From an uncultured Planctomycetota bacterium (GTDB taxonomy: Bacteria; Planctomycetota; Planctomycetia; Isosphaerales; Isosphaeraceae), in contig CAWGMQ010000011.1 in NCBI GenBank assembly GCA_963823665.1, positions 1,104,167 through 1,168,166 of the forward strand: a DNA stretch of 64,000 nucleotides. The letters are read 5' to 3'. Positions 44,943 to 60,320 of this stretch are shown piece after piece. Within the stretch, counting starts at the first letter, position 1. Each line of letters begins with the position of its first letter. The translations under genes were made by a program, and so were the position numbers. The notes beneath the pieces were generated by a model that worked only from the letters and a program-made list of their open reading frames with translations, searched no databases and was not told the origin of the DNA.

Positions 44943-47900
44943 TCATCCAAAAAGAGACTGCCACGCCTTGGGCTTGCCGGTCACCTGTGCGAGCGCCAGA
45001 TTGTCGATCAACTGGTCGCGCAAATCGCTGACGTCCGCAGTCGGCGGCACGATCGACACGACGACTCCCCCCGAACGGACCGTTGGGGCCCCTTTGCTGG
45101 CGGAGCTTCTCCACCCACCCAGGATCGCTTCGTCGATCGCCGCCAGGCTGCTCGCCAACGAGCTCGAGGGATGCACGCTCGCAGCGGAAACATCCGATTG
45201 AGCCGTTGCCGCACGACCCGGAGAGCTCGAGCTCGATCCGTGGCCTTGCCCCTGGAACGACGACGTAGCGGCAAGGGCGCTCAGTGTTTCGGATCCAGAC
45301 GGCGGGTCGGGATCGAAGAACAGCCCGCTCACCACCGCATTGGGGCCGGCCGTGCGCGTGAACGTGATCAACACGTTCCCCGATATCGTCCAGGTCAGAT
45401 ACTCTCCACTCGCGAAATTCGACACACTCTGCGTATTCAGCACGGCACTTGTATTGGCGTCGGAGAGCGTCACAGTCTCCGCACGGTGCGACGCGTCGTA
45501 GTCAAGGAAATAGAGCTCGAGGTTGTAAGCCTGGCCGGAGGCCACGTTCACATCGACCGTGAAGCTCGTGGCCGAATACCAGACAGCCGCAACACGACTC
45601 GTCCCGGACGGCGGTACCTCGAGGGCCTGCTGGGTTGACGGCGACGGGGTCGACCACGTGTATTCCTGCTCGCCGGCCGGCGCGATCGTGGCGTACGCCG
45701 GATCTTTCACGCTGCTGGCGACCAGGCTATACCCATCCGATCCGTAGACGTTGATCCAGTTCCCCTTCGTCGAGGTATCGGAGCCGACAAAACTCGCCGT
45801 GGCCGAACCAGGAGGCGGAGGTGGCGGCGGCGGCGGAGGTGGCACAGGAGTCGTGGGATCGAAGAATAGTCCGTTCAGCACCGCATTGGCGCCGGCCGTC
45901 CGCGTGATCGTGATCAGCACGTTCCCCGATATCGTCCAGGTCAGATACTCTCCGCTCGCGAAATTCGACGCGCTCTGCGTGTTCAGCACCGCACTCGTAT
46001 TGGCGTCGGACAGCGTCACTGTCTCCGCGCGCCCCGAGGCGTCGTAGTCGAGCAGATAGAGCTCGAGGTTGTACTCCTGGCCCGTGGCCACGTTCACATC
46101 GACCGTGAAGCTCGTGGCCGAATACCAGACAGCCGCAACACGACTCGTCCCCGACGGCGGTACCTCGAGGGCCTGCTGGGTTGCCGGCGACGGGGTCGAC
46201 CACGTGTATTCCTGCTCGCCGGCCGGCGTGATCGTGGCGTACGCCGGATCTTTCACGCTGCTGGCGACCAGGCTATACCCATCCGATCCGTAGACGTTGA
46301 TCCAGTTGCCCTCCGTTGAGGTGTCGCTCTTGACGAAGACCGCGGTCGCTCCCGACGCCGATGTGATCACGCCGGTTGAGACGGGAACGAACGTGTAGGT
46401 GTAATTGTTGCCGGAGTTGCCGTCGGTGACGGTGCCGCTGGGCGTGAGAGTCAACCCTGTACCCACATTCGGCGTATTGTACGTTTCGATGAAGTTGGCC
46501 GAATCGCCCGGGGCAATGCTTCCGGAGGTGATCGTGGGAATGGCCGCGGCGGAGGTGGTTCCGTCGTAAGTCTTGGTGTTGGTCACGGCGGTAACGGTGA
46601 GCGCCCGCGCCGTGATCGTGCCCAACGATGCCGCAACATACGAGTACGTGTAGTTCTTGCCCGAGTTGCCGTCGTTCACCGCGCCGCCGGGGGTCAGCGT
46701 CAGGCCGCTGCCCACGTTTCTGGTCGAGTAAGTCTCGATGAAGCCGGCGGTGTCGCCGGGCATCACGGTGCCCGAAGTGATCGTGGGAACCGTCGTCGCG
46801 GACGTTGTGCCGTCGTAGGTCTTGCTGTTGGCCGCGGCCGTCACCGTCAGGGCCTCGGCCGTGATCGTGCCGGAGGAAGCCGCAACATACGAGTACGTGT
46901 AGTTCTTGCCCGAATTGCCGTCGTTCACCACACCGCTGGGGGTCAGCGTCAGGCTGCTGCCCACGTTCTTGCTCGAGTACGCGTCGGTGAAACCGGCTGT
47001 GTCGCCGGGCATCACCGTACCCGCGGTGATCGTGGGCACCGTCGCTGCTGCGGTTGTGCCGCTGTACGTCTTGGTGTTGGCGGCCGCGGTGATCGTGAGC
47101 GACTCTGGCGAGATCGTGAAGCTGGTCGAGCTGCTGGCCGTCGGATAATTCGTGCTGCCAGGGAAGGTGGCGACGACTGTGTACGTTCCTTCGTTGCGCG
47201 GTGCGGTGCTGCCCAGATTCGTTCCGCCGGTCCCGGTCCCCGCGTAATAATCAAAGTTGATACCTTCTCCCTGCAGCGTGTCGTAGGGAGGTCCGTCATT
47301 GGGTGTGATCGTGGCGGAGGCCGCAAACGGCAACCCGTCATACGTGCCGCTCGCATCCGTGACACTTACCGTCGGCGGGCTCGTGGCGGTGGCGGGATCG
47401 AAGAATAGTCCGCTCAGCACCGCATTGGCGCCGGCTGTCCGCGTGATCGTGATCAGGACGTTACCCGATATCGTCCAGACCAGATACTCTCCGCTCGTGA
47501 AATTCGACACGCTCTGCGTGTTGAGCACGGCATTCGATTTGGCGTCGGAGAGCGTCACCGTCTCCGCACGGTGCGACGCGTCGTAGTCGAGGAAATAGAG
47601 CCCGAGGTTGTACTCCTGGCCCCCGGCCACGTTCACATCGACCGTGAAGCTGGTGGCCGAATACCAGACGGCCGCAACACGACTCGCCCCGGACGGCGGT
47701 ACCTCGAGGGCCTGCTTGGTTGTCAGCGACGGGGTCGACCACGTGTATTCCTGCTCGCCGGCCGGCGTGATCGTGGCATGGGCCGGATTGACCACGCTGC
47801 TGGCGACCAAGTCATAGCCGTCGGATCCGTAGACACCAATCCAGTTGCCTTGCGTCGTGGTGTCCGATTTCACGAACGAAGCCGAGGCGATGATGGGGTT

Positions 47901-50900
47901 CACGGTCAGGCTTTCGCTGCCCGTGATGCTTGACGTCACGGTATCGGTGGCGAAGATCGTCTGCGTCCCGGTGGAATTCAGGGTTGCGGTAAACGACTGA
48001 GTGCCCGCATTTCCCGAATTGAAGGTGTAGTTCGCCGGCAGGACCGCGCTTGAGTCGGAGCTGGTGAAATGCACCTTTCCGGTGTAGCCGGTAGCGATAT
48101 TGCCATAAGGATCATAAGCGGTAACCGTGAAGTTACTGGCGAGACCGGAAGTCACCGAGCCGGGAAGCCCGGTGACCGCCAGCGACGCCGCCCCGGCGGG
48201 CTGGACGACGATCCCGGTCTCGCTGCCCGCGATGCTCGACGTGGTGGTGTCGGTGGCCTTCACGTACTGGGTGCCGGCGGTCTTGAGCGTCGCCGAGAAC
48301 GTGTGCACGCCGTTATCGTTGCCTGTACCGGTTGTGAACGTATAGCTGGCCGGCAAGCCAGCCTGCGAGTCACCACTGGCGAAGGCGACGGTGCCTGTGT
48401 AGCCGGTCGCGATGTTGCCGTAAGGATCGTAGGCAGTGACCGTGAAGTTACCGGCGACGCCGGCGGTGTCGGGGGTGGGGAACCCGGCGACGGTCAGTGA
48501 CACTGCGCCGGCGGGCTGGACAACGATCCCGGTGTCGGTGCCCGTGATGCTCGACGTCGTGGTGTCGGTGACCTTCAAGTACTGCGTGCCGGCGGTTTTC
48601 AGAGTCGCCGAGAACGTGTGCACGCCGTTATCCCCGCCTGTGCCGGTCGTGAAAGTGTAGTCGGCCGGCAGGCCGGCCTGCTGGTCACTGCTGGTGAAAT
48701 GCACGGTGCCGGTATAGGCGGTATCGACGTCGCCTTCCGCATTGTAAACGGTCACGGTGAAGTTGTTGGCCGTGCCCGCTGTGTCGGGCGACGGATACGC
48801 GGTAAACTTGAACGAGGCGGCTGCGGAGTCACCAACCGCGAAGAGCGTGGCATTGTTGATCGCGTACACCATTCCATCAGGGCCGATCAAGGTCGGAGTG
48901 TACGCTTCGCCGAGCCCGGTGGTCAGCGTCGTGACCTGAGTGAACGTATTGGTCGATAAGTTCCAGCGGTAGAGTTTGCCGTCCTCGCTGCCCGCCAGGA
49001 TACTGTCCGTGGCGGGGTCGACGGCCGCCGAATTGATGCACCACTCGCGCACCGCGCCGGGGTAGTTCTGGTCGTATTCCGGGTCCGGTGTCTGGCCCAG
49101 GATCGAGAGCACCGGATCCATCACGGTCGTGCCCGTGACCGGGTCGGACTCGGTGGAGTTGGGGTCAAGAATCGCAATCTGGTTGAGCCCGTTGCCCGTG
49201 CCCAAGCCCGCGTAGTTGTTGTATTTCACCATCAGCAGGTAGGTGGAGGTCCCATGGTAGGACGGCACCATCGAGGCCGGGACCACGGACGGGGTATCAT
49301 CCCAGCCGAAGGCCCCGGGTGTCTTCGTCTGGCTCAAGTTGGCCGAGAAATGCAGCAGCCAGCCCCGGTCGTTGTTGGAAGCGAAGGAGCTCTCCAGTAC
49401 GCCGATGTAGACGTCGCCGTCCGGCCCGACCATCGGGGAGGCCGTGGCATCGTTGACGATGCTGGCGTCATTCCCCGTGTTCGGGTCCTTGAGGGTAACC
49501 TGTGCCGTGACTGCCAGCGTTTGGCTGTTGAGAGCGACGAGCTTCCCCCACCCCCAATTCCCGGTGCTCTCGAGGACGTACAGGGTGCTGCCGTCATTGC
49601 TGAGCGCCGGGGCCGAATTGGTCGCCACCTGCGACATACCTGAGACGACGGGGACCCAGGTGCCCACGCCATTGGCGCCGATCCGCGCGACGCCGGTCGT
49701 CAATCCCAGGCCGTTCCCCGCCAATGCGATGAAGCCGAAGAAGATATCGCCGCTCGAATCGCTGGTGATCGGCGTATTGATGAAAATGTTGCTGTTATAT
49801 GCGGACGAGTTGGCGTTGTAGCTGGACAGGCCGTAGAAGGCGAGGCGGCTGGTGGCCGGCGGCGACGGCCCGGCGGCATCGGGCGAAGCGACGTACATCA
49901 CTGTGCCGCCGTCCGCGGGGTAATAGAGCCCGTTCTGGGGCGTGAGCGTAGGCGAATAGCTAGGAATCCAGTCGTAGCCGTTGGTCCCGCTACTGGGCTC
50001 CAAGGCGTAATCGGAGGTCAAGGTCCATTGCAAGGCTCCGCTCGAGCCCGACCGCGCCTGGATCTCGAAGCCGCTCGTTGTGCCCGTCTTGACCGGGATG
50101 ATCACCGTATTGGCTGCCGTGAGGATGGGTGATCCATAGTGGATCGCCAATTCGCCGTTGCTGTATTGCGGCTGGAGGTCGACGGGAGTCTGCCAGAGAA
50201 TCGAATCCAGCGGCTGCGAAGCGACCAGGGATGTTGCGGTGTGCTGTGGGTTCAAGGCATAACTCGGCCAGGCGTCGCTCGAGGCCGCCGTGATCACGCC
50301 GGTTGAGACGGGAACAAATGTGTACGTATAGTTGTTTCCAGAGTTGCCGTCGGAGACGCTGCCGCTGGGTGAGAGCGTCAGGCCGGTTCCCACATTCGGC
50401 GTATCGAAGATCTCCACGAAGCTGGCCGTATCACCCGGTGCAATGCTGCCGGCGCTGATCGTGGGAATCACCGCGGCGGCGGTTGTAAAGTCGTATGTCT
50501 TGCTGTAGGTTACGGCTGTGACTGTCAAAGCCCGTGCCGCGATCACGCCGGAGGAGGTCGCAACATAGGTGTACGTGTAGTTCTTGCCCGAGTTGCCGTC
50601 GTTCACCACGCCGCTGGGTGAGAGCGTCAGGCCGGTCCCAACATTCTTGCTGGCGTAGGTCTCGATGAAACCGGCGGCATCACCGGGCATCACGCTGCCA
50701 GAAGTGATCGTGGGCGCCGTCGTGGCAGCGGTCGTGCCGTCGTATGTCTTGCTGCTGGCTGCGGCCGTCAGGGTAAGAGGCGCTGCCGTGATCACGCCCG
50801 AGGACGCCGTAACATACGAGTACGTGTAGTTCTTGCCCGAGTTGCCGTCGTTCACCACGCCGCTGGGCGTCAGCGTCAGGCCGCTGCCCACGTTCCTGCT

Positions 50901-53900
50901 CGAGTAAGTCTCGATGAAACCGGCGGTGTCTCCCGATGCCAGCGCGCCGGAAGTAATCGCAGGCGCCGCTGTCGCGGTGGTTGTGCCGTTGTAGGTCCTG
51001 GTGCTGGCAACCGCGGTGATCGTGAGCGACACCGGCGAGATCGTGAAGCTGGTCGAATTGCTGGCGGTCGAATAATCGGTGCTGCCGGGGAAGGTGGCGA
51101 CCACCGTGTAAGTTCCGACGTTCGTCGGCGCAGTGCTACCAAGGTTGGTGCCGCTGGTCCCCATGCCCACATAGTAGACAAGGTTGATGCCCTGTCCTTG
51201 CAGCTTTGTAAAGGGTGAGCCGTCGTTCGGCGTGATCGTGGCGCTGGCCGCGAACGGCAGCCGGTTATAGGTGGCGCTTGCATCGGTCACCGTCACGGTG
51301 GGTGGGCTTGCGGCGGGGTTGACGGTGATCGTGGTGCTGGGAGCGCTCGGGGCGATCAAACTACTCCAGGGATCGCCGGTGGGCAGCGGATTCGCGGTGA
51401 TCGTGTACAATCCGTGGTGGGTTATGCTCAGGTTCGTGAACGTGGCGAAGCCGCCCACGGCATTGATCGGGAAAGTGCCCGCGAGCGTCCCCACGCCCGA
51501 GGTCACGTTCAAGGCGAGATTCACCTTCGAGCCCGGCACGCTCGTGCTGTCGAAATTGATGCCGAGATTGCCCGAGGCGTCCTCGGCCTCGACCACCGGT
51601 TGCTGCGCCAATTGCGCGCCGAAGCCGGCCGAGGACGAGGGCTCGGTGATCAAGACCAACTGGGTGGGGACGGCGTAAACTGCGTTGATCGTCGGAAAAA
51701 AGCCGGGCGACCCACTGGAGGTGTATGTACCGATCCAGGGGCTGAAGTTTACAGCGCCCGAGACAGTGCCGCCGGCACCGCCCGGGTTAGCCGTGGTCGA
51801 CGGGCCGTGGAGACTGCCCCACCAATCGGACGTTGCAACCGCCGCCGGGGCGGTCGAGACCGCTGCATTTTGCACGTCATTGAGGGCCACGACGTTGCCC
51901 GAGAGGTCGTCCTGCTGGGCCGTGAGCACGGCGATGTCGCCGCCACCGTTGCCCACGAATATGCCCGTCGTGCAGCCGTTGATCGCCGATTGGGTGACTG
52001 TCGCGGTGCCGGCGTTCGCGACATAGATGCCGGTGTTGTCGCCGGTGATCGAGCTGCCGGTAATGGTCGCCGTCGAGGTATCTTCGACCGAGATGCCGAT
52101 GTCGTCGCCACTGATGGCGACCCCGGTCGCCGTCAGATTGCGCCTGAGTTCTCGGCGATACCGGAGAGCAGAGACGCGCCGGACAAGGAGAGGCCCGAGA
52201 TCGTGACCGAGACGGTCGAGCCACCGCTCAACTCGATCTGGCTGCCGCCCGTGGCGCCCGTTGGCGCACTCAGGATCGTTGAGGAAGCTCCCGCGCCGGC
52301 GATCGAGAGCGACTGGCCGATGGTGACCTGCTCGGAATAGGTCCCGGCCAGGACATTCACGGTCCCGCCGGGGGCGACGCCGTCGACCCCCCCCTGGATG
52401 GTGACAAACGCGTTCACGCCGATCGTGAGCATATTGCCGTCGAGGATAACCTGCGAGAGTTTCGTGTCGTCTGCCCAGGCCGGGTCGACGTAGACGACCG
52501 ACTGGGAGGTCGGTGTGACTGTCTCGGCAAGGGTCACCGACTGGTTCGTCTGCGTGAGCGTATCTCCGGTGTATACGGCCACGATCGAATGGGTTCCCGG
52601 CGCGAGCGAGGAGGTCGTGAGCATCGCCTGATTCGAGGCATTCAAGCTCTCTGTTCCGAGTGCCGTCGTGCCGTCGTAAAAGGTGACCATGCCCGTCGGC
52701 GCGGGCGACGTGACTCCGGCGACGCCGACCACGCTGACGGTCGCCGTGAATGTCAGGGACTGCCCGAAGCTCGAGGTGGGGCTCGAGGCCGAAAGCGCGA
52801 CGTTGGCGGCGAAGTGGTTGACAACCTGGGTGAAGACGGGCGAGGCGCTTGGCTTGTAGGTAGCCGCGTCGCCGTCGTAGACTGCGTAGAAGGCGTACGT
52901 GCCCGCCGATAGAGGGCCAGCCGGGTAGGAGGCCTGGTTGGTTCTGTTCAAGCTCACTGTGCCCAGCACGGTCGAGCCTGCGAAGAAGGTGACCGTGCCG
53001 TCTGTGGGGCTGGCGACCCCGCTTGCAGTGACCGTGGCGGTGAGCGTCACGGACTGGCCGCTCGCGGAGCTGCCGACTGCGGTGGCAAACGTCGTCGCGG
53101 TGGCGTCCGGATTGGAAAGCGCGGCCGAGCCGGCCTGTACGCCGAGCGAGGAGGCGGTGCCGGTAATCGTCGAAGTGCTGCTGTCGGTCGCGGTCAGAGA
53201 CTGAGTGCCCGATGTCTCAAAAGTGACGTAGAATGTACCCGTCCCCTGCCGCTCGGGGGCGAAGCTGTACGTGGCCGCCACCGGCGCCGCGGGATTGCTG
53301 CCGCCGTACGTCACGGGGAACGCGGCGGCGGGGTCGGTGCTCGATAAATCGACCGTTCCGCCATAGCCGGATGCGACGTTGCCGTAGGGGTCCATCGCGG
53401 TGACTGTGATGGCGAAGGGCACACCCGCGGTGGGATTGCCCGAATCACTGAGCAAAAGCGACTTGGCGGCGGCCGGCTGCACCAGGATATTGCCCTCGGT
53501 GCCGGTCTCCGCCGGCACGGTGGCCGCGGTCGCGGTGATCGACTGAGGCCCGGCCGTCTTGAACGCGACACTCGTGAAGGTGTGCGTGCCCTTGTTCGTG
53601 GAAGTGAAGGCAAAGGTGGCCGGCAGGCCGGCGACCTGCGGGTCGCTGCTGCTCAGATCGACCGTTCCCACGAAACCGGTGTCGGTACCCCCGCCGGGAG
53701 CAAGCGCCGTGACGGTGAATGAGAAGGTGGCGCCGGCGGTGACGCTCGCCGGCACGCCGCTAACCAGCAGCACGTCGGACGAGCTGCCGGAGGCCTGTTC
53801 GATCGTCTCGGAGAACTGGTCCGCCGTGGCTTCGCCGTTTGAGCCATTGCGGTTCTGGTTCATATCGTTGCCGTACCAGTCCTGCACGTCAGGGCCAACC

Positions 53901-55705
53901 TCCAGAGTATAGGCGCCCGAGGCAGACTGGTTCGGGAATGTGATGTCGAACGTATGATCATTCGAGCCCGCGACCGCGGCGACGGATATTCCGCTCAAGC
54001 TGCCGAGCGGCCCCGCGAGCGAAACCTGCGCCGGGGTGAAGGTTGCGGGGTTGATCTCTTCGTTGAACGTCACCTGGATACTGGACAAACCCGAGCCGCC
54101 TGCGATCGCCCCAGTCGGCGTGGATGAGACGACGTACGGCCCGTCGGTGTTGGCGACCGCGGCGGCTGCATTGACGATGCCGCCGCTTGTTACCATCCCC
54201 GCCAGCGCCGGATCGGGCGTCACGGTGTCCAGGACCGCGTCAATCACCTGGCTCATCGACCAGGTCGGGTGCGCGGCCTCGACCAGGGCGACGGTCGCCG
54301 TCACGAGCGGCGCCGCCATCGAAGTGCCGCTGTCGTAAGCGAACCCGTTATTCAATGAGAGGCCGTACAGGTTGTTCCCGGGCGCGGCAATCTGCACCGA
54401 TTGGACGCCGTAGTCGGAGTAGCTCGCCCGGGTGCCGCTCTCCGTCGTGGCGGCCACGCCGATCAGGTTGGGAAAATCGACGGAGTACGAGGCCGGCGAG
54501 AACCACGTGGCGCTGTTGTCGTCGTCGGTGCCGCCGGCCAGGTCGTTGCCGGCAGCGGCCACGATGATCACGCCATACTGGTCTGCATACTGGATCGCCG
54601 CTGCGATGGTGGGGTCGGTCCCACTGCCACCCCAGCTCGCATTGATCACCTTGGCGCCATGATCGACGGCGTACTCGATCGAAAGGGCCGCCGCCGTGTC
54701 GCTGCCGCTGCCCGTGCTATCAAGGAACTGCACGCCCATGATTTGCACCGACCAGTCCGCGCCGCTTGAGCCGGCGGCGCTATTGCCGACCGCCGCGATC
54801 TCGGCCGCGGTGAACGTGCCGTGACTGTCCTGGTCGATCGGGTTGTCGGTGTTGGAAACGAAGTTCCAGCCGATCAGGTCGTCGGGCGTCGCGGTGGAGC
54901 CGTCCTGGGTCGAGCCGCTCGCCCAGCCGCCGGAGGACAGCGGAGCGAGCACGGACGAACCGTTGACGACGCCGCCGGTGGCCGTGATTTTCCCCGCCCC
55001 CTGGTTGACCGCCACCCCGTTTACGGTCGCGTTCAGGTCGGCAAATGTGATCAAGCCGTCGCCATTGGTGTCGGTCAGATCAGTCCGCACACTGGCAGGA
55101 ATCTCGGCCTGGTTGATCCAGATGTTATTGAGCAGGTCTGGGCTGTTGTATGAAATGCCGGTGTCGGTGTCGGCGACGATCACCTGCGAGGAGCCGCTCG
55201 TGACGGTCCACGCGCCGGGGGCGTTGATGCCGAATGGTCCGTCGAGATACCACTCGGTGTTGTTGTCGTAGAGGGGATTGTTGGGCGCGTCTGCCGCCTG
55301 CACGGTGCGCGGCGGCGCTATATATTCGACGGCCGGGTTGCCGGCGAGCTGCGTCTGGAGCGACCCCATTTCGGCCGCCGGCGCCTGCACGAGGTAGTAA
55401 CCGGGAATTCCCGTCGCCTCGACCGACCCACCGGCATGCGCGATCAGGCCGGCGAGCGGCCCCAGAGACCCGCCGGTGCCCGGCGCGAGCACCAGGTTGA
55501 GCACAGGCCCTTCCAGTGACAGCGCTGCTGGAGGGATGCCGGTCTGCGGCGTCCCCGAAAGCAACGTCCGCGATTCCAGACGCTCAAGGTCCGATGCACT
55601 GGCTCTGCCAGGGCGGCGGTGCTTGATGCGGGACTGCGCTGCCGGACCCCTTGCCAAAGGGTACGACCGCAAGGCGCAGGCTGGACGACGACCGTCACTC
55701 GACAT
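44943..55705 (-). CDS. Giant surface protein C: S8 subtilisin-like serine peptidase with LEPRxLL leader, Ig-like repeats, beta-helix, 6 YDG repeats, propeller-like domain, 3 CBM-like repeats and conserved tail; one apparent frameshift
   Basis: ORFs 52133-55705 and 44943-51956 join via a frameshift at ~52140 (ENSG-[A]N-LTATGVAISGDDIG). AGGGAG lies 9 nt before ATG 55705. LERLESRTLLS is at 55556-55588. Confidence 0.87.
45305..47885 (-). repeat. Three copies of the CBM-like domain in gene C (~45305-45795, ~45850-46340, ~47395-47885) with YDG repeats between the first and second in coding order
   Basis: Same protein and DNA sequence family as the 555-bp repeats of gene B. Confidence 0.92.
54150..55300 (-). 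other. Peptidase S8 catalytic domain of gene C
   Basis: Triad motifs VADTDTG (Asp, ~55170), DSHGTFTA (His, 54821-54823) and SGTSMAAP (Ser, 54320-54322); oxyanion AAAGND; DTNGDGLITFADLN EF-hand-like insert. Confidence 0.92.
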
Positions 55706-56260
55706 GGCGGTGCACTCCCTTGTGAGACTAGGTTAAAGCGATTAACGAGCAAGCCGGCGCGACCAACAGATCTGCCCCGAGCCCTGACGACAGGTTTTGA
55801 AGATCACCGCAACGGCAGTCCTTGCCGCACGAAGGTCGCACCGAACGAAAGTGGCACCTTCAAGAGTCATTCGCACCCGATTCAAACCCAAGCTGACATT
55901 TGGTGATCCCGATTATTACGACTGCGTCGGCGAAATTCAACCGCCGTTGTACAAACGAAACTTCGGGCCCGTGTGCGTGGGCTCGACAAACTTTGGCGAT
56001 CCGCCGCGTCGCGCGGGTGCTGCGCGTTCGACCGACTTTGATGATAATTCAGGGTGTCTGCGTTAATGGCATAACATCTAGGTAAGGATTGCGCTTTGGG
56101 AAGATCAGTCTATTGGGAAATTTGGAGAAACTTCTTGAAGCGATTACTCGTGGAGAGACGAAGTTTAAGACTGAGTTGGCGGTCTCGTGCGCAAGGCGGA
56201 GCCTTTGGGTACGATACCGATGTGCACCAAAGTCGGTCGGGATGTAATGTGGAGCGTCCG

Positions 56261-58669
56261 ATGTTGAGAAAACTGCCGTCGGTCGCGCTTCTCGCCCTGG
56301 GATTGGGGCTGGGCGCGGTCGAGCACCCGGCGCAGGGAGCGAGTTACGCGGGTGGTGCGTCGAGTCGTATCTGTCCCGTGTCCCAGGAATGTTGCGGGCA
56401 CACCCAGTATCAACAACAGCTACAGACGGTTCTCCGCAATGTGCAGGAGACCGTTTACGACCAGCAGGTCGTTCCGGTGGTGCGTACCGTCCAAGAGACG
56501 GTGATGCAGCCTCGGACAATCACCACGATGAAGAACGTGGTCGAGCAGCGTGTGCGCGAGGAGCCGTACACGATCCAGCGGCCCCTTTATCGCACGGTCT
56601 CCCAGGAAGTTCACTACACGGTCCAGCGCCCGGTCACCCGGACGGTCTGGAAAGACGTAGCGTACACGGTGATGCGACCGGTGCGCGAAACGCACCTGGA
56701 GTCGCGGCCTTACACCGTGACGACGCCGGTTCGCGAAACCTCGTTCAAGACGTGCGCCTACAACGTGAGCCATCAGGTGCGCGACGTCTCGTACAAGGAC
56801 GTGAGCTACACGGTCTGCCGGCCGGTTCAGGAGACGATGGTCAAGACCGTGAACTACACGGTGTGCCGGCCGATCCAGGAGACCCACTACAAGACCTGCG
56901 TCTACACGGTCTGCCGGCCGGTGCAGCGCGTGCGCACCCGGTGCGTTCCCTACACGTACCAGGTGCCGGTGCAGCACACGGTTATTCAGTGCCAGGCCGA
57001 CACCGAGATGGTGCCGGTGCGTCAGTGTGCGTACAAGCAAGTGGCCTACACCGTGTGCAGGCAGGTCAAGGAGACGGCGCTCAAGGAATGCCGCTACACC
57101 GTGCAGGTGCCCGTGCGCCGGACCGAGATGCGCACCTGCTCGTACACGGTCTGCCGCCCGGTGCGTGAGACAACGATGCGGGAATGCCGCTACACGGTAT
57201 GCCGCCCGGTCCAGACCACCTCGTTCAAGACGGTCAGCAAGACCTGCTACCAGACGGTCACCGAGACCGCCTGCCGCGAGGTTTGCGAGAAGGTCTGCGT
57301 TCCGCGCACGATCTGCAAGCCGGTCACCCGCACGTTCAAGGAAGCCGTCGTCCAGCGGTACTATGTTCCCGGCAAGTCAGTTTGCATTAACGGATGCCTG
57401 TATGAGTGCCCGGGAACGTGGTGCGAAAAAACGGTCTGCTGCCCGCGCACGGTGACCGAGAACGTGATGTGCACGGTCTACGAGACCGAGATCGTCAAGA
57501 AGCAGGTGCCGTATACGATCTGCAAGAAGGTTCCCTACACCGTCTGCGAGCAGGTTCCGGTCACCACGTGCCAGCTTGTCGCCGAGGAATGCGTGAAGCA
57601 AGTCCCGGTGACAACGTGCCGGATGGTGAGCGAGATCTGCACCAAGCAGGTGCCGGTGACCGTCTGCGAATATGTGGCCCAGGAATGCGTCAAGCAGGTG
57701 CCGGTCACCACTTGCCGAAACGTGCAGGAAACATGCTACAAGACCGTTCCCTACACGGTCTGCACGATGCAGCCGCGCACGGTGATGCGAAAAGTGCCGG
57801 TCACGGTCACCACGATGTGCAACAAGACGGGGTATCGCCAGGACCCGTACACGGTCACCGAGTACGTGCCCCAGCAGTGCACCAAGCAAGTTCCGTACAC
57901 GGTGACGCGTACGCTGCGTGAAACGGCATGCAAGCAGGTTCCGTACACGGTCACGCGCATGGTGCCGCAGATCTGCTCCAAGCGGGTACCGATCACCACG
58001 TGCCGCACGGTCACCCAGACTTGCTACAAGCAAGTACCGGTGACGACGTGCCGCATGGTGAGCTCGACCTGCTACAAGCAGGTGCCTGTCACGACCTGCC
58101 GCATGGTTGCTGAGCCGTGTGTCAAGAAGGTGTGCCAGACCTATTGCGAAACGGTCACGGAGCCGTGCGTGAAGGTTGTGCCGGTCACGGTGTGTGAGAC
58201 GCAGACGATCCAGTGCGTGCGCAAGGTGCCCTACACCGTTTGCAGTCAGGTGCCCGAGACCAAAACGATCTGCTGTCCGGTGCAGGTTGCCAAGCAGGTC
58301 ACGGACTACAAGACGGTCTGCGTGCCGCGAACCGTGTGCAAGCAGGTTCCGATCCAGGTGTGCGTGGCGGTGCCTTACGTCGTCCACTGCCCGCCGGTGG
58401 TGCTGCCGTCGTCACAGAGCGTGATGGCGTCGAGTCAATCGATGCCGTTCACGACGGTGCCGCCGACCGACCCCGGCGACAAGCCGCTACCCGCTCGTGG
58501 GCGGCAACGCGCGTCTGGTGCACTGAGCCAGAAGAGAGAGACGGCAACACAGGCTGTGACCGTGCTCGACTCCGACGCCCCTCGCAGCCACTCGACAAAA
58601 CCCCGACCGACTCTCGCCCCGGGCCGCCAACCGCCCGGGGCGTTTTCATTTCGCGGCTTCGCGTGGTGA
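56261..58669 (+). CDS. Secreted Cys/Val/Thr/Pro-rich YTV-repeat protein (planctomycete cell-envelope protein family, PF07639-like); true stop may be earlier (~58526)
   Basis: GGAG 6 nt before ATG 56261; signal-peptide-like MLRKLPSVALLALGLGLGAVEHPAQGA; ~33 16-aa repeats (YTVCRPV... then VPVTTC...KQ). Confidence 0.85.
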   Translation: MLRKLPSVALLALGLGLGAVEHPAQGASYAGGASSRICPVSQECCGHTQYQQQLQTVLRNVQETVYDQQVVPVVRTVQETVMQPRTITTMKNVVEQRVREEPYTIQRPLYRTVSQEVHYTVQRPVTRTVWKDVAYTVMRPVRETHLESRPYTVTTPVRETSFKTCAYNVSHQVRDVSYKDVSYTVCRPVQETMVKTVNYTVCRPIQETHYKTCVYTVCRPVQRVRTRCVPYTYQVPVQHTVIQCQADTEMVPVRQCAYKQVAYTVCRQVKETALKECRYTVQVPVRRTEMRTCSYTVCRPVRETTMRECRYTVCRPVQTTSFKTVSKTCYQTVTETACREVCEKVCVPRTICKPVTRTFKEAVVQRYYVPGKSVCINGCLYECPGTWCEKTVCCPRTVTENVMCTVYETEIVKKQVPYTICKKVPYTVCEQVPVTTCQLVAEECVKQVPVTTCRMVSEICTKQVPVTVCEYVAQECVKQVPVTTCRNVQETCYKTVPYTVCTMQPRTVMRKVPVTVTTMCNKTGYRQDPYTVTEYVPQQCTKQVPYTVTRTLRETACKQVPYTVTRMVPQICSKRVPITTCRTVTQTCYKQVPVTTCRMVSSTCYKQVPVTTCRMVAEPCVKKVCQTYCETVTEPCVKVVPVTVCETQTIQCVRKVPYTVCSQVPETKTICCPVQVAKQVTDYKTVCVPRTVCKQVPIQVCVAVPYVVHCPPVVLPSSQSVMASSQSMPFTTVPPTDPGDKPLPARGRQRASGALSQKRETATQAVTVLDSDAPRSHSTKPRPTLAPGRQPPGAFSFRGFAW
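58615..58651 (+). terminator. Rho-independent terminator
   Basis: Perfect 10-bp stem cgccccgggc/gcccggggcg, 8-nt loop, followed by ttttcattt; lies between convergent genes. Confidence 0.8.
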
Positions 58670-59092
58670 CGCACTCGCCGGTGTCGAGGGATAGATGTAC
58701 GCACCGTCGACACTTAAACCACCGAAAGTGGCTCCGCCGAACCACGTCGGAAATCGTTTAGCATTGCGCACTGCGTAAGGGCTGGCAGGCACCGTGGGTT
58801 TGATGACTGCCGAGGCGGCCTGAGTGAGCGAGTCGCTCAATCCAATTACCTTGATCTCGAACGGGTCAATCCACAGGTCTGGCATTTTTCGAAGGGTGCC
58901 ATGAACCAGGCGATAGGCCGCCGCGGGTCCGTTATCGTCCACGGTCGAGGAAGCCAGGTACAGATACCATTTCCCCTCTTCGGTAGGCTTGGCCCAGAAC
59001 GCGACGCGGACTTCAAATCCTTCCTTCGCGAGCGCTTCAATCAGGCGCTCGCCACTCTCGGTCTGTTCGCTCAGTAGCGTGTCTTTATCCAT
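58646..59092 (-). CDS. Conserved hypothetical protein overlapping the HEPN gene; candidate antitoxin/partner
   Basis: 148-aa globular-looking ORF (GERLIEAL..GF.V.VAFW......WYLYLAS...G...AY; IDPFEIKVIG; VDGAYIY); its start overlaps the HEPN gene end by 22 nt. Confidence 0.75.
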   Translation of the reverse strand: MDKDTLLSEQTESGERLIEALAKEGFEVRVAFWAKPTEEGKWYLYLASSTVDDNGPAAAYRLVHGTLRKMPDLWIDPFEIKVIGLSDSLTQAASAVIKPTVPASPYAVRNAKRFPTWFGGATFGGLSVDGAYIYPSTPASASPREAAK

Positions 59093-59511
59093 GGCGTGAC
59101 TCCGTGCGAAGCATCGGAAATCGCGTTGTACAGCGATTCCGCCTCGCCCTGTTCCACCCTGTGATATCGCTTTTCCTCTGACCAGTCCGGTGTCAGCATC
59201 CAGTTCGCTAGCAGATCCGGATCCGCGTCTGTGGCGTTTTTCAGTGCGACTTCAAGCTTCGCGAGCCCGACTAGCTTTTCAATCGCGTGCGTATAGCAAC
59301 TCTTTGAAAACTCTTTCTCCGGAAAGGCGTCCGTCGAGAGTAGCGATTTGATGATGCACGCCTTGAGGCCAAGTTCGACGGCATACCCCGCCAGGTAGTA
59401 TGCTCCGTCCCACTGACCGTGATCGAGCAAGAATTTCGCCTCAACCAATCTCTGATCGGCTAGAGCCTGAAAGTCCGCCCGCGTGACGATCAGCTTGCTC
59501 AACTCGCGCAT
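59071..59511 (-). CDS. HEPN domain-containing protein
   Basis: RLVEAKFLL...AYYLAGYAVELGLKACI...YTHAIEKL...WSEEKRY, the typical HEPN helical-bundle signature; start could be TTG at 59502. Confidence 0.8.
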   Translation of the reverse strand: MRELSKLIVTRADFQALADQRLVEAKFLLDHGQWDGAYYLAGYAVELGLKACIIKSLLSTDAFPEKEFSKSCYTHAIEKLVGLAKLEVALKNATDADPDLLANWMLTPDWSEEKRYHRVEQGEAESLYNAISDASHGVTPWIKTRY

Positions 59512-59630
59512 CTCCCAGAGTTCGGCGTTACTTAATCATAGCCAAAGTCGCACCGTTTGCGCTGCGCGCCGGGTTAATGACAAAAAACGCGCGATGCGGT
59601 AAGCCCTCCACTGTAAGTCTTCAGCCGGTT

Positions 59631-60239
59631 CTAGCTCTGCTGCGCCACCAGATCAAGCACCGAAATCTGCCCATGAACGCTGCCGCCGAACTCGATCGGC
59701 ACCGACTCGTTCGCACGCGCATTGTAGCGGACCACATCAGTGTAGCGCGCCATCCTGCCCCGCCCGGTCGGTCCGGTCCGGACTTCGACCTGGGTGTCAA
59801 GGCCCTTGAGACGAACGATCATATAGATCGGAATGCCCGCAGTGGCGTACCGACGCCACTTCTGCCCGCGATCGCGACGGCATGTCGTGTCGGAGACCTC
59901 GACGATGAGGGCGATGTCACGCGGCCGCGGGTGCCGGGCGGCGAAGATTGCATGGGCGCCGCAGAGCACCGCGATATCGGGCTTGGGCGCCCAGTAACGG
60001 CCGATCAAGACTGGCTTTTCTTCCCGGATTGTCCAGATGTCGCGCGGAAGCATTGGCCGCAGCGCTTCGCGAAACTCACCGACGGCGAAAGTGTGAGGCG
60101 GGAGGTCGGTCATAGGATAGATCTTCCCCGCAACCAGCTCGACCTTCTGGTCGTCAAAGATGCCGGCGGCCGCCATTCGATGAAACTGACGGACGTCGAA
60201 CGGGTAGCTTCGGGCGGCGCTTGTCGAGAGGCCAATCAT
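59631..60239 (-). CDS. Uma2 (DUF820) family PD-(D/E)XK endonuclease-like protein
   Basis: FHRMAAAGIF..KVELVAG..M..PPH, PKPDIAVL, LIVEVSDTT..RDRGQK...YATAGIP; AGGAGG 9 nt before ATG 60239. Confidence 0.88.
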   Translation of the reverse strand: MIGLSTSAARSYPFDVRQFHRMAAAGIFDDQKVELVAGKIYPMTDLPPHTFAVGEFREALRPMLPRDIWTIREEKPVLIGRYWAPKPDIAVLCGAHAIFAARHPRPRDIALIVEVSDTTCRRDRGQKWRRYATAGIPIYMIVRLKGLDTQVEVRTGPTGRGRMARYTDVVRYNARANESVPIEFGGSVHGQISVLDLVAQQS

Positions 60240-60320
60240 GGGGCACATCCTCCTAGCGGAAGGTAACGAACTTCGCAATCGGAAGCAAGCCAGCCATTCG
60301 ATCGCAGCACGCACGCATGC

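Follow-up and report, generated by a model that had tools for sequence, protein, structure and literature searches.

The make-up and architecture of the planctomycete protein wall have been a question since the 1980s. YTV proteins are major wall components in published preparations, one of them is essential, and the accessible text of these papers gives no structure. The window, by which we mean the whole 64,000-nucleotide stretch of DNA analyzed here, carries a gene for a YTV protein in which two long runs of 16-residue repeats flank a short center. The locus raises the question of how such a chain folds and what it builds. A first-pass annotation had proposed a single disulfide-rich β-hairpin about 100 nm long, cross-linked into an envelope mesh or acting as a molecular ruler.

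The gene is a single open reading frame on the plus strand, extending from a TTG at 56096 to 58669. We took the ATG at 56261 as its start because GGAG precedes it, a signal-peptide-like stretch begins there, and relatives retain the upstream context; the resulting protein (56261-58669) has 802 amino acids (aa). This protein belongs to a known family, the cysteine-rich YTV proteins of the cell wall, matching Pfam profile PF07639 in seven stretches with an E value of 7e-49 (164 bits versus a cut-off of 21). Its orthologues belong to the Isosphaeraceae, and a match was present in 118 of the 121 Isosphaeraceae genomes searched. Given the Pfam match and this distribution, the repeat pattern is not a product of chance, and the original observation is confirmed. 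A search of NCBIfam profiles with the protein gave no match, and a search of solved structures by sequence gave one weak, unrelated match (E = 0.005).

Both the family and its location in the wall are already published. According to the accessible text of the respective papers, YTV proteins are main components of SDS-boiled Gemmata obscuriglobus walls (PMC5287468) and top-scoring among the wall proteins of Tuwongella immobilis (PMC8567305), and a YTV protein is essential in Planctopirus limnophila, where cysteine was suggested to regulate wall rigidity (PMC10632474). The family is reported as restricted to Planctomycetia (PMC12673574). Our sample of the phylum agrees with this restriction: PF07639 was detected in 31 of 301 genomes and in 0 of 14 controls, the positives being the source genome, all 28 of the 28 genomes sampled from four other families in its class, and two weak matches elsewhere. 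The host falls in class Planctomycetia, as expected for YTV wall proteins. Three Planctomycetota clusters without PF07639 were found in the ESM Atlas at 0.80-0.84 and are leads only; a search of sequencing runs with the YTV gene reached a best share of 0.16. The source genome also holds a second YTV gene, at about 2452.5-2454.6 kb (L003:333-1965, G000:C4), which is split by a one-base frameshift.

The protein begins with a putative Sec signal peptide (56261-56338, aa 1-26), assigned by eye from a basic N end, a hydrophobic core, and AQG-A, followed by a short Cys-containing head that tolerates indels (56339-56398, aa 27-46). The left strand of the predicted ribbon (56399-57367, aa 47-369) is made of YTV-type 16-residue units, and the right strand (57416-58384, aa 386-708) of KQVPVTTC-type units of the same length. 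Between them lies the tip (57368-57415, aa 370-385), which reads as PG, a four-residue strand, an Asn-Gly turn, a four-residue strand, and PG. A low-complexity tail (58385-58669, aa 709-802) that is longer than those of close relatives completes the protein. Asn-Gly occurs only once in the protein (aa 377-378, 57389-57394), and Pro-Gly lies on either side of it at aa 370 and 384, as the first-pass annotation described for the center. That annotation had also described strict 16-residue repeats, which is true of their spacing but not of their sequence. Tyr-anchored units of the left arm fill 13 of 14 slots on an exact 16-residue grid (aa 103-311), and VP[VYI]T-type anchors of the right arm fill 13 of 15 (aa 432-656); both grids extend in degenerate form, to about aa 55 on the left and about aa 705 on the right. 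In contrast, YTVC[RK]P occurs in only five units, [VI]TTCR in five, and KQVP in nine. The protein contains 138 Val, 66 Pro, and 62 Cys among its 802 residues, and within aa 27-718 there are 23 Cys to the left of the center versus 39 to the right.

We then examined whether residues of the two arms change together. From 83 loci (30 from the search and 53 further full-length matches, with partial and frameshifted matches left out), 81 orthologues were kept once the copy in the window itself and a single frameshifted locus had been set aside. At identities of 37-82%, these 81 orthologues are free of indels throughout aa 48-374 and 386-706; those that occur are confined to the head, the tip, and the tail, making the tip the only internal site that has them. 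An enlarged set comprised 119 distinct full-length sequences out of 233 genome and metagenome loci, the remainder being duplicates, partial or frameshifted copies, members of another length class, or copies with an arm indel. Covariation was calculated as mutual information with APC and summed along every anti-diagonal.

Among the 1184 anti-diagonal sums for 82 sequences, i+j=755 scored 23.9, followed by 757 (17.1) and 753 (16.6), and the best sum outside 751-759 was 3.3. No parallel diagonal beyond 5 residues exceeded 3.8. With 119 sequences, the same three sums rose to 27.0, 19.4, and 18.8, respectively, versus 3.5 for the best elsewhere, and 32 of the 50 top covarying pairs fell on these lines. 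This is the single anti-diagonal centered on Asn-Gly that the first-pass annotation had predicted. The irregular units, noted earlier as lying at similar distances from the center, face each other in this register (231-262 on the left and about 498-545 on the right). When 11 segments of the arm, spanning aa 45-372, were scored separately, 755 was among the top three of about 685 sums every time, indicating that the register does not shift along the arm. The diagonals divide by face, with even left residues pairing on 753 and odd left residues on 757.

Because a repeat or shared ancestry could produce such a signal, we also applied independent contrasts to closely related sequences, taken as 49 disjoint pairs. 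Positions i and 755-i had changed together 438 times versus 345 expected (z = 6.9), with z scores of 5.8 for 757 and 3.1 for 753; other sums did not exceed 3.2, and the repeat aliases at 755 ±16 and ±32 did not exceed 0.9. The 755 signal is therefore not a by-product of repetition or ancestry. The result was replicated in a separate set of 154 other YTV proteins that have longer tips and were anchored only at the tip flanks: offset 0 scored 23.2, offset -2 17.5, offset +2 11.9, and the next best 4.0. We conclude that left-arm residue i very likely pairs with residue 755-i in a single, unbroken antiparallel register. The highest covariation scores came from the tip-flank columns, aa 360-362 and 393-395. 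In the family, these flanks are Gly-x-Trp and Trp-x-Pro, which face each other, and about half of the orthologues have Trp-Trp there; the source protein has Lys-x-Ala (57338-57346) and Cys-x-Pro (57437-57445).

When given an 82-row alignment, AlphaFold modeled continuous strands at 47-369 and 386-708, each of 323 residues (pLDDT 63, pTM 0.20), with Asn-Gly closing a small hairpin at the tip. Since it shares the alignment, this model is not independent of the covariation, and at its moderate confidence it supports the strands, as the earlier prediction had required, and not the overall shape. A model from the single sequence was poor, partly helical, and unusable (pLDDT 35), and a two-copy complex prediction of aa 252-503 scored 0.01 and counts neither for nor against the fold. 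At 0.32-0.345 nm per residue, 323 residues correspond to 103-111 nm, or about 105 nm if extended. The two repeat halves very probably form one two-stranded ribbon about 100 nm long.

The same register could in principle arise between chains, as a swapped dimer or an open-ended polymer in which the ribbon is a fibre. Covariation cannot assign residues to chains, and neither can AlphaFold from the same alignment; moreover, the tip is the only variable part, spanning 35-86 residues across the family. However, Asn-Gly and Asp-Gly favor tight turns, and the tip carries this signature: residue 378 is Gly in 116 of 119 orthologues, residue 377 is Asn or Asp in 110 of 119, and the two together read NG in 84 of 119. 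Covariation also runs right up to the tip (Y368-G385), where AlphaFold closes the turn. We therefore consider pairing between chains unlikely, and a single-chain hairpin, with both arms in one molecule, quite likely. The short NG tip is particular to the present orthologues; other YTV proteins have longer tips, spanning 35-86 residues.

A long hairpin predicts that the arms of homologues change length in matched pairs. We looked for landmarks in 291 proteins of at least 250 aa; both tip flanks were found in 172 and all four landmarks in 89. Using the outermost motifs, and with eight hand-picked equal-armed seed proteins excluded from the count, arms were exactly equal in 66 of the 89 measurable homologues (permutation mean 18.8, maximum 32) and within 16 residues of each other in 88 of 89. 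Two preceding forms of this test were dropped: the first (20 of 54 equal) mis-assigned a landmark by taking the second aromatic-x-Pro, 14 residues late, and in the second (50 of 150 equal) the end profiles slid into internal repeats. Equal arms fall into length classes of 102, 118, 134, 138, 150, 182, and 294 residues. Kin are not independent, and among 24 distinct length pairs 7 are equal, with a Spearman correlation of 0.71. Among 11 shorter or divergent metagenome homologues, seven have equal arms (198 in four of them, and 180, 214, and 230), two have unequal arms, and two lack measurable arms. In the frameshifted paralogue of the source genome, measured on DNA, the arms are 182.3 and 182 codons. 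The arms of the source protein, at 294 residues between landmarks, are among the longest, compared with 102-230 in most others and 302 in one incomplete case.

A few homologues depart from this rule. L121 and L125 are short by 32 residues in the right arm only, the arms of L280 are 198 and 166 residues, those of L273 are 294 and 182, and those of P0099 were measured at 180 and 70. L280 is identical to L272 except for 96 missing bases, which points to assembly collapse as the probable cause of its one-sidedness. Where L125 is short, 2 of 16 full-length orthologues contain exact repeats, 31-43 bases long and spaced 96 bases apart. The one-sided arms of L121, L125, and L273 may be real, as tolerated loops or as intermediates of a two-step change in length. 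Taken together with the covariation and the modeled strands, the matched arm lengths bear out the proposal of one giant antiparallel hairpin.

Equal and constant arms might also mean that the ribbon is a molecular ruler, its length setting the width of the periplasm, the mesh size, or the length of an appendage. The arm is indeed fixed at 294 across orthologues at 37-82% identity. However, pairing alone already fixes the length, because a longer or shorter arm would require two matched indels. Ribbons of two lengths, 294 and 182, coexist in one genome, and no measured structure in the analyzed data correlates with ribbon length. The suggestion of a ruler thus gained no support, and we regard it as improbable.

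The two faces of the ribbon differ. Pro occupies even positions of the left arm and odd positions of the right arm 48.3 times per orthologue versus 1.1 times at the other parity, and 13.7 versus 0.07 times in the 154 other YTV proteins. A twisted two-stranded ribbon with Pro at non-hydrogen-bonded sites gives such a split of face and parity. On the other face, the 757 diagonal carries 31.5 opposite-charge versus 0.8 like-charge pairs per sequence.

This arrangement bears on whether several hairpins associate along their edges to make a long β-barrel tube or a wide tape, such as a stalk, fimbria, or conduit. The fold search of the predicted model returned no meaningful match and no solved relative; its only hits were barrel-building hairpins of the aerolysin family and lysenin, together with the phi29 collar. 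These share the extended, two-stranded antiparallel form of the source protein, yet their TM-scores were at most 0.09 on the query, with identities of 4-15%, and there is no homology. Pore-stem and phage-collar hairpins also differ in that they extend from globular domains and depend on a barrel for their stability. Against a tube or tape, about 48 Pro per chain would sit at sites whose NH groups edge pairing needs. A second covariation register for side-by-side packing, sought in the 119 sequences, did not rise above noise (best segments 4.2-4.3), and relatives in other families come from SDS-boiled walls, as far as the accessible text of that report describes (PMC5287468). Lateral assembly of this kind is quite improbable.

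We next considered the cysteines, which average 51 in the arms of orthologues (range 21-80) and which the first-pass annotation had pictured as cross-linking a disulfide-rich hairpin into an envelope mesh. An internal ladder of cross-strand disulfides could draw on the 62 Cys of the source protein, in which five Cys-Cys pairs lie on the 753 diagonal and three on 751. However, directly facing Cys-Cys pairs occur 0.01 times per orthologue sequence versus 2.0 expected, and the 154 other YTV proteins avoid them likewise (0.026 versus 0.168). Pairs on 753 are at chance (1.74 versus 2.0 expected); those on 751 number 3.2 versus 2.1 expected and join residues two steps apart. As facing pairs are avoided and 753 pairs are at chance, the protein falls outside the class of disulfide-laddered hairpins, and a ladder holding the arms together is very unlikely.

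Instead, most conserved cysteines form a row. On the ribbon, 20 of 23 lie on the proline face. Right-arm Cys recur at a 16-residue pitch from 421 to 501 and from 581 to 661, and the gap at 517-565 is filled by left-arm Cys at 218, 202, and 186 (55, 81, and 93% of sequences, respectively); in 15 of the 18 periods, one arm or the other has a Cys in at least 73% of sequences. Because these residues form a row and do not face each other across the strands, disulfides to other ribbons or to the Cys-rich ends are their most likely use. A conserved row on one face would suit links between molecules, and we lean toward the view that such disulfides give the wall its mesh. A fold built locally from the 16-residue units, either a β-solenoid or a string of short hairpins, accounts for the regular period but can be set aside as extremely unlikely, since scores reach only 2.6-3.4 on parallel diagonals offset by 16, 32, and 48 residues versus 24-27 for the long anti-diagonal and the units lack turn-forming Gly or Asn.

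The best explanation as a whole, to which we assign a probability of about 0.7, is an exported envelope ribbon that turns at Asn377-Gly378 and is welded by cysteines into a wall mesh. After removal of the signal peptide, this structural protein would fold back on itself at Asn377-Gly378, and residues 47-369 would pair with 386-708 as a twisted, two-stranded β-ribbon of 323 residues per strand. Thr-Thr, Pro-Met, and Tyr-Pro pairs would lie on one face, together with almost every proline and the majority of the conserved cysteines; on the opposite face, Val would lie across from Arg, Lys, or Glu, with diagonal salt bridges. Pro at non-hydrogen-bonded sites would take away outward NH groups and thereby limit sideways growth into a wide sheet. 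The Cys row, about one per 16 residues (approximately 5 nm), would bond to other ribbons or to Cys-rich ends. Judging from the cysteine placement and published wall preparations, the outcome may be a covalent mesh, resistant to SDS, that carries the load of a peptidoglycan-poor wall.

By eye, the N end of the source protein resembles a signal peptide. The protein shares a Cys-, Pro-, Val-, and Thr-rich composition with the YTV proteins known from wall preparations of Rhodopirellula baltica, G. obscuriglobus, and T. immobilis and from P. limnophila. Its head, tip-flank, and end motifs are also theirs, whereas its arms (294) are among the longest and its NG tip is short. In their accessible text, published accounts of YTV proteins cover motif, location, and cysteine content, not fold (PMC5287468, PMC8567305, PMC10632474, PMC12673574). 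We found no published description of YTV proteins as hairpins in a literature search of mostly open-access text. A looser likeness is to the epiplastins of protists (articulins, alveolins) and the articulin-like proteins of Caulobacter, which have a head, a repetitive Val-, Pro-, and charge-rich middle with VPV motifs, and a tail, and are predicted to form long β-strands and a meshwork under the membrane (PMC6212826). The Val and Pro richness and all-strand model of the source protein match this trait. However, epiplastins lie on the cytoplasmic side and are not described as Cys-rich, and planctomycetes are not mentioned, in the accessible text of that paper (PMC6212826). The source protein is bacterial, begins with a putative signal peptide, and has no articulin or alveolin family match at E 0.01 in Pfam or NCBIfam; the likeness is a resemblance in composition and predicted long strands only, not membership.

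A bolder extension, which we hold at a little under even odds, is that the Planctomycetia wall is a textile of single-chain β-ribbons, which here would span about 105 nm with two strands of 323 residues each. Pro edge guards would keep each ribbon at two strands, a Cys row of 5 nm pitch would weld a load-bearing net that replaces peptidoglycan, paralogue lengths would set the mesh geometry, and length would evolve only by matched indels. If so, the source ribbon is far longer than the hairpins returned by the fold search. If one chain can form a stable two-stranded ribbon of such length, the fold would be unusual and would offer nanofibre design a scaffold. The residue-level register, i with 755-i, renders the question of wall architecture testable.

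Upstream of the gene, an alignment revealed a conserved 5' leader (56165-56263, plus strand) with a covarying nested stem, a GGA triloop, and the GGAG ribosome-binding site. Among 20 sequences, 91.9% of cells in the 16 nested pairs can pair and 12 of 16 pairs change on both sides, scored on the same alignment from which the structure was derived; 0 of 500 shuffles matched this, and slid registers reached at most 47%. The leader was matched once in the source genome; of 61 family genomes, 39 had a single match, adjoining a YTV gene wherever coordinates were compared. A search of Rfam with 55700-58800 gave no match. We consider the leader a candidate cis-regulatory RNA. A GGA loop together with GGA in the ribosome-binding site resembles CsrA/RsmA targets, and the source genome holds 10 CsrA matches; that the leader is a CsrA-type control site is a guess.

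At the gene's opposite end, the tail departs from those of relatives after about aa 735 (58460-58669) and lacks their CxxC motif. Within it, a terminator-like hairpin found by pattern match (58615-58652, plus strand; 10 G-C pairs, then a T-rich run) is read through, although such patterns were no more numerous than in shuffled sequence. The divergence, the lost CxxC, and this read-through suggest that the extended tail probably reflects a lost stop or a frameshift, natural or from assembly. Three small open reading frames on the minus strand (58646-60314) separate the YTV gene from rdgB: a 148-aa protein of unknown function, a 146-aa HEPN protein with a PADLOC match to PDC-M28A, and a Uma2 nuclease. 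In 40 of 77 related loci, rdgB lies within 3 kb of the YTV gene; the 148-aa and HEPN frames are present in 1 of the 77 and Uma2 in 0. These small frames possibly include an inserted toxin-antitoxin-like pair. Divergent open reading frames occupy the minus strand upstream (44943-55705), where a 1190-aa subtilase with Ig-like domains ends at 52133 and a 2337-aa YDG-repeat frame ends at 44943. The short gap between them points to a single large secreted protein that a frameshift has divided.
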